Below are positions 1,518 through 4,143 of a stretch of DNA of 43,948 bases, in pieces (position 1 is the first letter of the stretch; each line of letters starts with the position of its first letter). The position numbers and the translations under genes were made by a program. Under the pieces are notes generated by a model. That model saw only the letters and a list, made by a program, of their open reading frames with translations. It was not told the DNA's origin and ran no database searches. The stretch is taken from the sequence record SRR2962707_3714, one strand, 5' to 3'.

Positions 1518-2309
1518 TTATCTTGAAATCAGATTGTCCACGACCTCGCGGCTCGTCCGCGTAAAGGTCAGGTCACCGAAATCATCAAGCGATGTCAGAT
1601 GCGGGAACATGGACATGAACAAAGTGCGTTTGCTTTGCTCCAGCTCCGACGACATGTTGCGCCCCGGATGGTAGCTTTCAAATTCCATACCACTGACATT
1701 GATGACACCGTGGCGTGCCAAAGCGATGTGGTACATTTGAACCGAGCTTGGTGGCGTCACGTTAAAAACCTGATCGCCATCGCAGAATTCAGACACCGAC
1801 ATCAAAACCGCGCTCTGACCAATCAGAGCTTCCAGGGGCGGTCTGCGCACCACCATACGCGCGGCGGGGCCCAAAAGAATATCGCCCATGGGTTTGCTCA
1901 GGCCAAAGGAATCGTTCGTGAGACGGGTAAGATGCGTCAGGCTGGAGTTTGAAGCGGCAACACTGGGCACAAAAATCGTCGATCCGATCCAGGCAATCGG
2001 CTCAAAACCGCGACCGGTTTCAACAAGGTCGCCCGGAAAAAGGTCTTCGACGGATATCGGACCGTTCTGAGTGGTGATGACTGTGCCACGTGCAAATGCG
2101 CTGGCCGTTGCCTCAAACACATTTGTGGCCGGAGCAATCACGTGTTTAGAGACAATCGTCTCATCAGGCATCAAAGCAGACACCTCGTATTTTCGCATAA
2201 GTCTGACGGGACGGGCCGTATGAGGCTCGGGCCGTGCATTACGCAAGGTGTTAACGGTGGTTGTGTTCGGTGCTCGTACATCAAGTGCACGCATTTGGGG
2301 TTTAGCCAA
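1518..2309 (-). CDS. Hint (Hint_2/BIL-like) domain protein; probable TTG start
   Basis: AFARGTVITTQNGPISVEDLFPGDLVET...IAWIG and YHIALARHGVINVSGMEFESYHPG are typical Hint_2 blocks; AAAGGG precedes TTG 2309 (start uncertain; ORF open to 2360). Confidence 0.85.
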   Translation of the reverse strand: MAKPQMRALDVRAPNTTTVNTLRNARPEPHTARPVRLMRKYEVSALMPDETIVSKHVIAPATNVFEATASAFARGTVITTQNGPISVEDLFPGDLVETGRGFEPIAWIGSTIFVPSVAASNSSLTHLTRLTNDSFGLSKPMGDILLGPAARMVVRRPPLEALIGQSAVLMSVSEFCDGDQVFNVTPPSSVQMYHIALARHGVINVSGMEFESYHPGRNMSSELEQSKRTLFMSMFPHLTSLDDFGDLTFTRTSREVVDNLISR

Positions 2310-2540
2310 GTGAACACCCTTTCTTTGGGCAGCCACATCTGCGTTGGCCCCCACCAACAACAGCAGAAGGACGGGTTACGACATTCTGTGTGGTTACAGA
2401 TTCACACCAAAAGGCGCTAACTGTTAAATAAGATTTGGGTCTGGAGCCATGGGCGCGGGCGCCTTTGGCTTGGCGTGCTTGTACCAGAGCCGTTTCGCCA
2501 CACTCATCGTGGCGGCCTACAGTTCTGGATGATGCAAGTC

Positions 2541-2633
2541 TTAGGCTTTACGGGTCCACGGAAAGGTCGGTTTGGAACCTTTCGACGTTTTAACGACTGA
2601 TTTGGTAAAGCGGGTGTTTTTACGGTTTTTCAT
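2541..2633 (-). CDS. 30-aa basic microprotein MKNRKNTRFTKSVVKTSKGSKPTFPWTRKA (paralogue of 3000-3140)
   Basis: ATG 2633, TAA 2541-2543, AGGA RBS; 12/21 identical ungapped core with the neighbouring small protein; shares its upstream block. Confidence 0.75.
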   Translation of the reverse strand: MKNRKNTRFTKSVVKTSKGSKPTFPWTRKA

Positions 2634-2686
2634 TTGTCTATTCCTACACTCATTACACCCAGTATTTCGGGCTGGCTCCTTTTGGG

Positions 2687-2730
2687 GAACATGATCAATA
2701 TGGTTAAGAAATAAGGCGGAGATTGGGCAG
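2687..2730 (-). promoter_or_regulatory. Duplicated promoter-like block, copy B
   Basis: ctgcccaatctccgccttatttcttaaccatattgatcatgttc; 32/44 ungapped identity to 3182-3225. Confidence 0.7.
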
Positions 2731-2794
2731 CTTCGCGACGATTTTACGCTGACGCCCGATGGGGAACCTAAAGAGGATTGGGGGAGACGCCGGC

Positions 2795-2823
2795 AAAAGA
2801 AAACCCCGCGTTTGACGGCGGGG
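2795..2823 (-). terminator. Rho-independent terminator closing the 46-aa microprotein transcript
   Basis: Minus strand CCCCGC-cgtcaaac-GCGGGG followed by TTTTCTTTT. Confidence 0.75.
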
Positions 2824-2999
2824 CGACATATCGGATGAGATTTCTTGCACGAATGAGCGGCGCTATGAAATCCTGGAACAAAAATAGATCAATCTGGGTA
2901 AATCCGCCTTGCTGATGAATGGTTTGGTCATCACTCAGGGACTAAGGCTTATTCGCGCGGCGCCTGCGGAATCAGGCGCACGCGATGTGCTTATAAAGC

Positions 3000-3140
3000 T
3001 TAGGCGCTCTTCAACTGAAGCGGCTTAGTTGTGCGTTTTGCAACGAATTCTTCACGACGCGAACCGCGTGCCCAAGGCATCGAAACTTCTTGTGTTTTTG
3101 AAGTCTTCAGAACTGATTTGATGAACCGGCGAGTCTTCAT
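3000..3140 (-). CDS. 46-aa basic small protein MKTRRFIKSVLKTSKTQEVSMPWARGSRREEFVAKRTTKPLQLKSA
   Basis: AGGAG RBS before ATG 3140 (true start lies inside ORF 3000..3236); resembles the '..KSV...PWARG.RR' small hypothetical proteins I recall from Rhodobacteraceae. Confidence 0.85.
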   Translation of the reverse strand: MKTRRFIKSVLKTSKTQEVSMPWARGSRREEFVAKRTTKPLQLKSA

Positions 3141-3181
3141 TTTCTTGCTCCTAAATGTGACGTCCACGCTTTGAACTGCTC

Positions 3182-3236
3182 GGACAGGATCAATATCGCA
3201 ATAGAATAAGGCGGGTCTTGGGCGGATCGTGGGCAA
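3182..3236 (-). promoter_or_regulatory. Duplicated promoter-like block, copy A, with three GCC repeats in 11-bp phase
   Basis: ttGCCcacgat ccGCCcaagac ccGCCttattc tattgcgatattgatcctgtcc. Confidence 0.7.
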
Positions 3237-3387
3237 TTTTTGAAAATTCTCGCCTTAATTCAATTTGTTGTCGGTATCGATGTAACTAATTGTTTTAAAT
3301 TAGAAAATACTCCGGTCTCCGAAACACTTTTCGCCTCTTGGCGTGATTGTGCTGAAGCCTTCAACAGTTTGACAGGGAAATGTGGCG

Positions 3388-4143
3388 CTACAGGCGAATT
3401 ACAGAGATCAGCCTGCCATAATCCGCTTCTTTTTCGTGAGTCGTGCGACGGAAAGAATAGAATCTATCAGCATCAGAATAGGTGCAATGACGAGTCCATT
3501 CTGCATCAACGCCGGCCTCTCGTAGGCGGTGCAAACCAAAGGCAGGAAGGTCGAACAAATACCTGTCGCCCTCGCCGTTTATGAAGAAGCGGGCATTGTT
3601 TCGTTCTTCGTCGAAAAAGCGTTCAAAGAACTCTGGACCGACCTCGTAGGCACGCTGGCTGATTGAGGGGCCAACCACAGCTTTGATATTGTCACGCTGC
3701 GCGCCAAGCTTAATCATGGCATCAATGGTGTTTTCTAAAACGCCACTAATCGCGCCTCTCCATCCTGCATGCGCCGCGCCGATAACACTGTTTTCCCGGT
3801 CAGAGAACAAGACAGGTTGGCAATCTGCCGTGAGGATCGCCAAAGCAACGCCAGGTGTGGCAGTAACCATACCATCTGCTTCGGGTCGGGGGCCGGATAA
3901 GGGGCCGTCAATGACGGAAACATCCGAGGAATGAGTCTGGTTAATTGTAACGAGTCGCTCTGGTGTGACCTGCATCGCCTCCGCAACACGGCCGCGGTTG
4001 ATTTCTACGATCTCTGTTTGGTCGCTGGAACCAATGCCGCAGTTCAGGCCTGAAAAAACACCCGAAGACGCCCCTCCGCGACGGGTGAAAAAACCGTGTC
4101 GGAAAGGGGACAACGACTCGGCTGTGATGATTTCCAGCGTCAT
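3388..4143 (-). CDS. pgeF: Peptidoglycan editing factor PgeF / YfiH purine nucleoside phosphorylase
   Basis: HGFFTRRGG, QTHS, ADGMVT, TADCQPVL, HAGWRG, FYSFRR motifs; start MTLEIIT overlaps the upstream stop. Confidence 0.95.
   Translation of the reverse strand: MTLEIITAESLSPFRHGFFTRRGGASSGVFSGLNCGIGSSDQTEIVEINRGRVAEAMQVTPERLVTINQTHSSDVSVIDGPLSGPRPEADGMVTATPGVALAILTADCQPVLFSDRENSVIGAAHAGWRGAISGVLENTIDAMIKLGAQRDNIKAVVGPSISQRAYEVGPEFFERFFDEERNNARFFINGEGDRYLFDLPAFGLHRLREAGVDAEWTRHCTYSDADRFYSFRRTTHEKEADYGRLISVIRL

Follow-up and report, generated by a model that had tools for sequence, protein, structure and literature searches.

Long and short members of an unnamed family of small basic proteins, probably encoded as two separate genes downstream of pgeF

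The closest described counterparts of the locus reported here are the DUF1127 (PF06568) proteins of Alphaproteobacteria, such as CcaF1 of Rhodobacter sphaeroides and the small DUF proteins of Agrobacterium. The locus is a tandem pair of small open reading frames (sORFs), A (46 aa) and B (30 aa), on the minus strand of the stretch SRR2962707_3714, which was analyzed over its whole length of 43,948 nt (the window, to which all coordinates refer). CcaF1 binds RNA. Like the DUF1127 proteins, the products of the pair would be shorter than about 50 aa, rich in Arg and Lys, and encoded by stand-alone genes that sometimes occur in several copies per genome, and they would act in trans, as we infer for the window family. 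The Agrobacterium proteins are reported to act via protein-protein contact with PhoR (PMC12501420). However, neither A nor B matches any Pfam family at E≤1 or shows a sequence relationship to DUF1127, and 44 members of the window family give only scattered single unrelated Pfam matches, none of which recurs. The family also differs from DUF1127 in its motif (R-[FW]-I-x-S-V ... P-W-x-R-G), its fixed place downstream of pgeF, and its predicted helical hairpin.

Two other kinds of known system share features with the pair. The ribosomal proteins bL34 and Sra/bS22 are about 45 aa long, extremely positively charged, and helical; the family resembles them in length, charge, helicity, a Lys-rich start, and a C-terminus of the type basic-basic-x-Ala, which we regard as a lead only. 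However, members occur in a single bacterial family and are lacking in 137 of its 401 genomes searched, which rules out a core ribosomal protein, and no ribosomal profile matches them. Attenuator leader peptides and upstream open reading frames (ORFs) are similar in that a hairpin comes after a short ORF and a conserved gene of the same orientation lies further downstream. In contrast to these, the peptide sequence of the family is under purifying selection over its full length; the ORF has a conserved upstream element to itself, in many cases a terminator as well, and is also present where the downstream gene is absent.

Our results suggest, with a probability of roughly 60%, that A and B are two real translated genes of one unnamed family, each with its own upstream element, and that their products act in trans on an anionic partner. 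The first-pass annotation, made from the sequence alone, had described the pair as a duplicated promoter-microprotein cassette, and everything it listed as seen was reproduced. Both sORFs are preceded by a Shine-Dalgarno (SD) sequence at the appropriate distance (Table 1), their peptide cores are identical at 12 of 21 residues without a gap, both coding sequences (CDSs) end in GCC TAA followed by G, and B contains 10 Lys or Arg residues and no Asp or Glu (13 and 3, respectively, in A). Each CDS also follows a copy of the same 44-bp block, which ends 43 nt (A) and 55 nt (B) before the ATG. Among all ungapped 44-mer comparisons of the 150 nt upstream of A and of B, it scores best, with 32/44 identical positions, and none of 300 mononucleotide shuffles reached this value (maximum 27, mean 21.8). 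Apart from the block and the CDS cores, the two units align poorly in a global alignment, in agreement with the reported divergence of the remaining DNA. The hairpin described after each stop codon is present in both units; it is clear in A (76-nt stretch, -27.8 kcal/mol, 2/200 shuffles equal or better) and statistically weaker in B (-29.9 kcal/mol, 8/200 shuffles equal or better). A terminator-like site sits between the two units, and A and B are probably separately promoted genes. A terminator scan found no such site between B and the downstream Hint_2-domain gene.

The proposal of a selected microprotein family was borne out, as conservation of both the peptide core and the upstream block extends far outside the window. 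When 80 pgeF loci of other species (PgeF identity 67-76%; titles Roseobacteraceae and Paracoccaceae) were searched in six frames, 67 contained a match to the family profile hidden Markov model (HMM) on the same strand and within 1.2 kb downstream of pgeF, confirming the linkage to this gene. These ORFs start with ATG, have about 35-70 codons, and carry the same motif. The profile was built from a 44-sequence alignment (A1) that includes both window copies, so that their own scores are partly circular, while independent members in other genomes reach E-values of 1e-9 to 1e-21. Among 401 Rhodobacteraceae genomes, 264 have a match at E≤1e-3 in a six-frame search, and the copy number is mostly one (259/264); the same kind of search shows exactly two copies in the window. 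These data identify A as a syntenic ortholog of an unnamed small-protein family and not as an orphan. What is unusual at this locus is confined to the tandem and the short copy.

Sequence databases contain many relatives, all without a specific name. A word-indexed database searched with alignment A1 returned 281 proteins, whose every given name is "hypothetical protein", and an exhaustive profile search returned 703 representatives at 50% identity with E≤1e-3, including 109 with E≤1e-10. Among the 150 matches listed, 149 are 39-136 aa long; the remaining one, of 1808 aa, partially matches profile positions 10-30 at 27 places, which we take to be repetitive low-complexity sequence. With A alone as the query, one near-identical protein (98%, Q17E) was found in 5.8 billion clusters by a search that needs shared exact words. 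All relatives found in the ESM Atlas belong to clusters of 45-50 aa with no name beyond "hypothetical protein" (best score 0.91). No NCBIfam model matches A, B, or the family, no Rfam covariance model matches positions 2000..3800 on either strand at E≤1, and no stretch of metagenome contigs carries a degenerate back-translation of the pattern RFxKSVxKTSK-x6-PW. Literature searches by topic yielded nothing on the family, which does not imply absence from print because a nameless family cannot be searched by name.

Some members depart from the common form. In three loci of Fuscovulum-like and Neotabrizicola-like origin (L052, L059, and L067), the orthologs are 54-70 aa long, have a Pro-rich tail (...PIAAH or ...AIAAH) in place of the C-terminal [KR]-x-A, and are not followed by a Hint gene. 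In another locus (L020:6928-7060), the ORF at the expected place begins like the family (MKAQSRF...) and lacks P-W-x-R-G, with the Hint gene and its leader intact; it looks like a frameshifted or degenerate copy.

Several independent signals make it very probable that A is a real translated gene. Pooled over 19 independent ortholog pairs selected by a protein identity of at least 65%, the proportions of synonymous and nonsynonymous differences (pS and pN) were 0.447 and 0.127, giving an omega of about 0.20. A first pairing by low pS, with a pooled ratio of 0.78, was discarded, as it was dominated by saturated distant pairs. Purifying selection extends along all 46 residues. In 110 non-redundant members, the start codon is ATG without exception, GGAG, GAGG, or AGGA occurs at -18..-4 in 95 (175/2200 random positions, 8%), and GC content is higher at third codon positions (GC3 0.70) than at first (GC1 0.57) and second (GC2 0.56) positions, a peak that shifts with the frame. 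In the window, A is the ATG-started portion of a 78-aa frame with a TTG start (3000..3236), and it begins 248 nt past the stop codon of pgeF on the same strand.

A profile of 330 sequences shows which residues are kept. Pro is invariant, followed by R26 (98%), G27 (89%), R6 (87%, otherwise Lys), S10 (86%), and R30 (86%); position 7 is F or W, position 24 is W, F, or Y, the C-terminus is [KR]-x-Ala, and the median net charge is +9. The minimal unit RFxKSVxKTSK-x6-PWxR proposed earlier was therefore only partly upheld: a conserved core exists, and "KTSK" is specific to a lineage. The family-wide core reads R-[FW]-[IML]-x-S-[VI]-x-x-[TA]-[AS]-x6/7-[LM]-P-[WFY]-x-R-G. Of its residues R6, F/W7, S10, and [LM]22-P23-[WFY]24-x-R26-G27, A has all and B has all except G27, which is Lys. 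A second basic helix (R29/R30 ... A35-[RK]36-R37) and the C-terminal [KR]-x-A are present in A and absent in B. AlphaFold2 with 44 sequences predicts A to be a strongly basic helix-loop-helix hairpin, with helices at 3-15 and 22-37, a variable loop between them, and P-W capping the N-terminus of helix 2 (mean pLDDT 79, pTM 0.35). In this model helix 1 would contribute F/W, I, and V to a small hydrophobic core, and helix 2 would contribute W, F/M, and I, with Arg and Lys facing outward. Structure comparison of a 46-residue hairpin, which is too small to discriminate, gave no match in the PDB at E≤10 with Foldseek and a best Z of 3.0 among 48161 chains with VIA-align.

The 44-bp block is the window version of an upstream DNA element that can be followed through the family. 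Upstream regions of the orthologs share a pattern of about 55 nt, ATTgTCC-N7-G(T/C)CA(a/c)A-N5-GCC(c)(c)A(t)T-N7/8-cAnatT(GATC), in which G.C and GCC are nearly invariant. With a profile of this element, nhmmer found matches in 52 of 110 upstream regions, both window copies among them. In full loci the element occurs nowhere else, and the A copy is the sole match in the window at E<1e-2. RNAalifold of 29 upstream and leader sequences gave no consensus pairs, which points to a signal at the DNA level. The 3' part of the element carries the A2/T6 signature of a -10 hexamer (GATATT, CATATT). There is no -35 hexamer at normal spacing, and three G-Y-C boxes recur every 11 bp, a layout that would suit an activator-dependent or alternative-sigma promoter. 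We take the element to be a promoter or operator. It was compared with the sites of sigma-32, sigma-28, and extracytoplasmic function (ECF) sigma factors, ECF41 among them, with PhoB-type direct repeats, and with CtrA, DnaA, and FNR boxes, and none fits both sequence and spacing.

Pattern searches of five genomes revealed no convincing regulon for the element. The pattern TTRTC-N8..10-GTCANA-N4..6-GCCNNANT occurs once each in G001 and G003, only at this locus, and not at all in the three other genomes tried, while the shorter GTCAMA-N5-GCCNNANT has 6 sites in G001, where the control has none, and is not enriched in the other four genomes. Two loci of G001 (L140 and L144) contain sites that resemble the two central boxes (GTCAAAA-N4-GCCC[AC]A[AT]T). 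One of these sites is about 125 nt upstream of an RNase D-like gene. The second is followed after about 60 nt by a hydrophobic sORF of 42 aa, itself preceding a large outer-membrane-type gene. The two sites may share a regulator with the upstream element.

Copy B is a truncated subtype and not a standard family member: it keeps helix 1, the loop, and PWxR, and then stops two residues later, so that helix 2 is missing. Even so, it does not appear to be decaying, contrary to the possibility raised in the first-pass annotation. Its ORF, start codon, and SD are intact, a contig of a close relative (run X2) has no change in it, and the same truncation is found in other genomes; B is probably functional. 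The X2 contig shows 0 differences over the 167 nt of the B CDS and its leader (2530..2696) and 10 in the 126 nt just downstream (2404..2529; Fisher p 1.8e-4); up to 8 more differences are unplaced, probably beyond 2943, with some possible in 2693..2830. In the spacer 2831..2943, 30 of 113 positions and two 1-nt gaps distinguish the window from this relative, which points to a local hypervariable or replaced segment. Another contig, of 152 nt (X1), spans 2533..2682 and ends at variable sites; it cannot show a transcript, and nothing is drawn from it.

Comparable tandems of a long and a short copy on the same strand occur downstream of pgeF in three genomes, G117, G078, and G290, with start-to-start distances of 501, 489, and 377 nt, respectively (507 nt in the window). 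A stop two residues past PWxR is found in only 3 of the 330 family sequences, which are the second copies of the window, G117, and G078, and all three keep R-F-x-x-x-V-x-x-[TS]-S...P-W-x-R. In G117, the order pgeF-A-B-Hint and the Hint leader are as in the window, despite a pS of 0.68 between the two A copies, and the short copy also has the upstream motif. In G290 (L117, L120, L125, L127, L129, and L131) and G078 (L118, L123, L126, L130, and L132), six family matches per genome are scattered over contigs, and the dispersed copies adjoin unrelated genes for an RTX-repeat protein, a histidine kinase, a LacI-type regulator, and others. This multiplicity may represent a lineage-specific expansion or mixed assemblies.

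Based on these observations, the following mechanism is proposed. The whole unit of about 500 nt would have been duplicated in tandem, giving B, and each unit would be transcribed from its own upstream element; the transcript of A would end at about 2795, and that of B may read through into the Hint gene. B would have been retained as a minimal form, in which helix 1 and the loop are followed by PWxR. Because the short form keeps the N-terminal helix together with the P-W-x-R turn, these are likely the working part and contact surface, and helix 2 would be accessory. The peptides would act in trans on a negatively charged partner, with RNA or the ribosome as the first candidate and an acidic protein surface as the second. 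At this shared partner, the short form would supplement the long form or compete with it. Nucleic-acid binding as the mode of action, suggested by the modeled basic hairpin, is a tentative and rather doubtful proposal.

The Hint_2-domain gene is the usual neighbor on the other side of the pair, and its position bears on two of the alternatives weighed below. In the 80 pgeF loci, sORF and Hint gene occur together, on the same strand and with Hint after the sORF, in 57; 10 have only the sORF (one of these loci is truncated), 5 have only Hint, and 8 have neither (one truncated). A strict scan found a canonical terminator between sORF and Hint in 20 of the 57 loci and none in 37. Pfam Hint_2 was detected in 37 of 59 extracted first-downstream ORFs, several of the others being opposite-strand artefacts or Lrp, Hsp20, and other genes. 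The link between sORF and Hint is frequent and not obligatory, and the link between sORF and pgeF is more constant; no Hint gene follows the tandems of G078 and G290.

In the window, the Hint_2 gene probably starts at TTG 2309, which aligns with the ATG of its orthologs, rather than at TTG 2360 of the longer frame. The usual first residue of a Hint domain is Cys. In the syntenic Hint_2 proteins, which are about 260 aa long, this place is taken by A, S, T, or G (xAFARGT) in 31/31 aligned sequences (alignment A2), so their Hint_2 domains are probably non-cleaving. Directly before the start lies a leader of about 70 nt that is almost invariant across genera, with the core GTTGTTGGTGGGGGCCAAC, then ACGGATGTGAC, and then an SD of the AAGGG type. 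By nhmmer it is present in 46 of the 80 pgeF loci (e.g., L023:7304-7373 and L025:7221-7293), and its exact core occurs once per genome, at this locus only, in 4 of 5 genomes tried. Its hairpin GUUGG-UGGGGG-CCAAC contains one covarying pair in 37 sequences (UA in 24, CG in 12), and no Rfam family matches it; the leader may function as a regulatory element in the RNA or as a palindromic operator. Co-folding of Hint (226 aa) with A, run without alignments or controls, scored 0.01 and 0.00 and is evidence neither way. The start of pgeF at 4143 is placed by its overlap with the stop codon of the upstream ORF. All features are listed in Table 1.

Table 1. Features of the sORF pair and its flanking genes in the window SRR2962707_3714
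Feature	Position	Strand	Supporting data and remarks
pgeF, upstream neighbor and synteny anchor	3388..4143	minus	Pfam Cu-oxidase_4 3.4e-72; NCBIfam TIGR00726 PgeF 183 bits (cut-off 141)
Upstream DNA element of copy A	3183..3237	minus	nhmmer E 2.8e-7; includes 44-bp block 3184..3227 and -10-like GATATT 3192..3197
sORF A, 46 aa, full-length family member	3000..3140	minus	family HMM 1.8e-18; SD AGGAG 3148..3152
Hairpin 3' of A, GC-rich, without T tract	2953..2985	minus	folding z -3.0
Fast-diverging spacer, 3' region of A	2831..2943	minus	30 substitutions and 2 one-base gaps against the relative's contig (run X2)
Intrinsic-terminator-like site between A and B	2793..2824	minus	7-bp stem, 6 GC pairs, T-rich tail
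Upstream element copy of B, more diverged duplicate	2691..2739	minus	nhmmer E 1.3e-3; block 2689..2732; -10-like CATATT 2697..2702
sORF B, 30 aa, short paralogue	2541..2633	minus	family HMM 6.6e-9; SD AGGA 2642..2645
Hairpin 3' of B, without T tract	2484..2528	minus	folding z -1.7
Leader of Hint_2 gene, ultra-conserved (context; not assigned to the cassette)	2307..2372	minus	nhmmer, covariation, exact-core search
Hint_2-domain gene, usual downstream neighbor of the sORF	1518..2309	minus	Pfam Hint_2 1.6e-30

Several results weigh against the reading of A and B as two functional genes acting in trans. The evidence for an anionic binding partner consists of charge and shape. The 44-bp block had been called a promoter, which a sigma-70 consensus scan of 2300..3450 did not support, as it gave no promoter-like site, and none of the sigma factors and regulators considered fits the element. 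The gene is absent from 137 of the 401 genomes and 13 of the 80 pgeF loci and looks frameshifted in L020, indicating that the family is dispensable. For B in particular, the predicted hairpin cannot form, and the tandem is present in just 3 of the 401 sampled genomes in addition to the window. The short copy of G290 lacks the Trp, and the B copies of the window and G117 are identical at 12 of 28 residues with pS 0.77 and pN 0.36, a comparison that is saturated and short. The nucleotide identity of B in the relative covers synonymous sites and the leader, which fits RNA constraint or a short divergence time as well as protein constraint. Finally, the PgeF tree leaves the four tandem genomes ungrouped (4 changes, at least 2 of them forced by supported branches); it was made by a quick method and is poorly resolved, so that it does not decide between shared ancestry and repeated duplication of the short form.

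Some of these points would also be expected if only A were functional and B were a truncated decaying duplicate, conserved through recent duplication or hitch-hiking. The rarity of the tandem, the missing Trp in G290, and the lack of a single origin in the PgeF tree are in line with this, as is the loss of helix 2, whose R30, A35, and R37 are conserved in the family. However, B has kept an intact reading frame, start codon, SD, and upstream element, the unchanged stretch of B and its leader borders on a segment that has changed in the relative, and the second copies of the window, G117, and G078 share motif and stop position despite the divergence between the A copies of the window and G117, which makes decay an unlikely explanation. 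The nucleotide invariance of B, its leader, and possibly its promoter region in the relative would also be expected if the units acted mainly as small RNAs, non-coding or dual-function, with the reading frames secondary, and short units lying between an upstream element and a hairpin have a suitable form. Against this stand the low omega, the frame-specific GC3, and the SD in most members, together with the detection of the peptide by HMM across genera whose DNA can no longer be aligned, the lack of an Rfam match, and the lack of a consensus structure in the upstream and leader region; we give a small-RNA role very little weight.

The frequent Hint gene downstream allows two further explanations. 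The sORFs could be cis-acting leader peptides that control read-through into the Hint_2 gene by a coupling of their translation to the hairpins. A hairpin lies directly 3' of both stops, no terminator-like site separates B from Hint, and the same holds for the sORF in the 37 terminator-free loci among the 57 with the shared gene order. But simple leaders do not need purifying selection over 46 residues, a canonical terminator intervenes in the other 20 loci, and either gene is found without the other; moreover, the dispersed copies of G290 and G078 lie beside unrelated genes and the tandems of both genomes have no Hint gene, and this explanation is decidedly improbable. Alternatively, the proteins could be specific regulators of the Hint_2 gene that bind its leader hairpin or the Hint protein. 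This would fit the gene order, the basic peptide, and a leader that is a conserved hairpin element present in single copy, and the leader occurs in 44 of 67 sORF-positive and 2 of 13 sORF-negative loci (Fisher p 0.0013, not phylogeny-corrected). However, the association may be plain synteny: the sORF persists without Hint and leader in 9 or 10 loci and in the G078 and G290 tandems, and the leader is present without a detectable sORF in L016 and L020. A dedicated Hint regulator is thus improbable, and two translated genes acting in trans remain our preferred reading.

A more specific version of the preferred reading, which is highly speculative, is that the long and short proteins form a two-component microprotein switch, both docking on one RNA via the N-terminal helix and the P-W-x-R turn. 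The best candidate for the target would be the single-copy, ultra-conserved hairpin of the Hint_2 leader, with a ribosomal site as the alternative. If this were true, the short form, which lacks helix 2, would antagonize or tune the long form, and the recurrent truncation two residues after PWxR in three genomes would have been selected and not accidental.

The family comprises 703 clusters at 50% identity without a Pfam or NCBIfam model, and no studied member was found. Because its members show clean signs of genuine genes and keep a constant place in the genome, they can readily be tested in tractable roseobacters. Where a long and a short form stand in tandem, which is rare, they show which part of the peptide suffices to be kept and offer a start for structure-function work, and the same locus adds two unexplained conserved DNA or RNA elements. 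No current view is overturned by these results; their value is that they add a clearly delimited family to the small proteins of bacteria.

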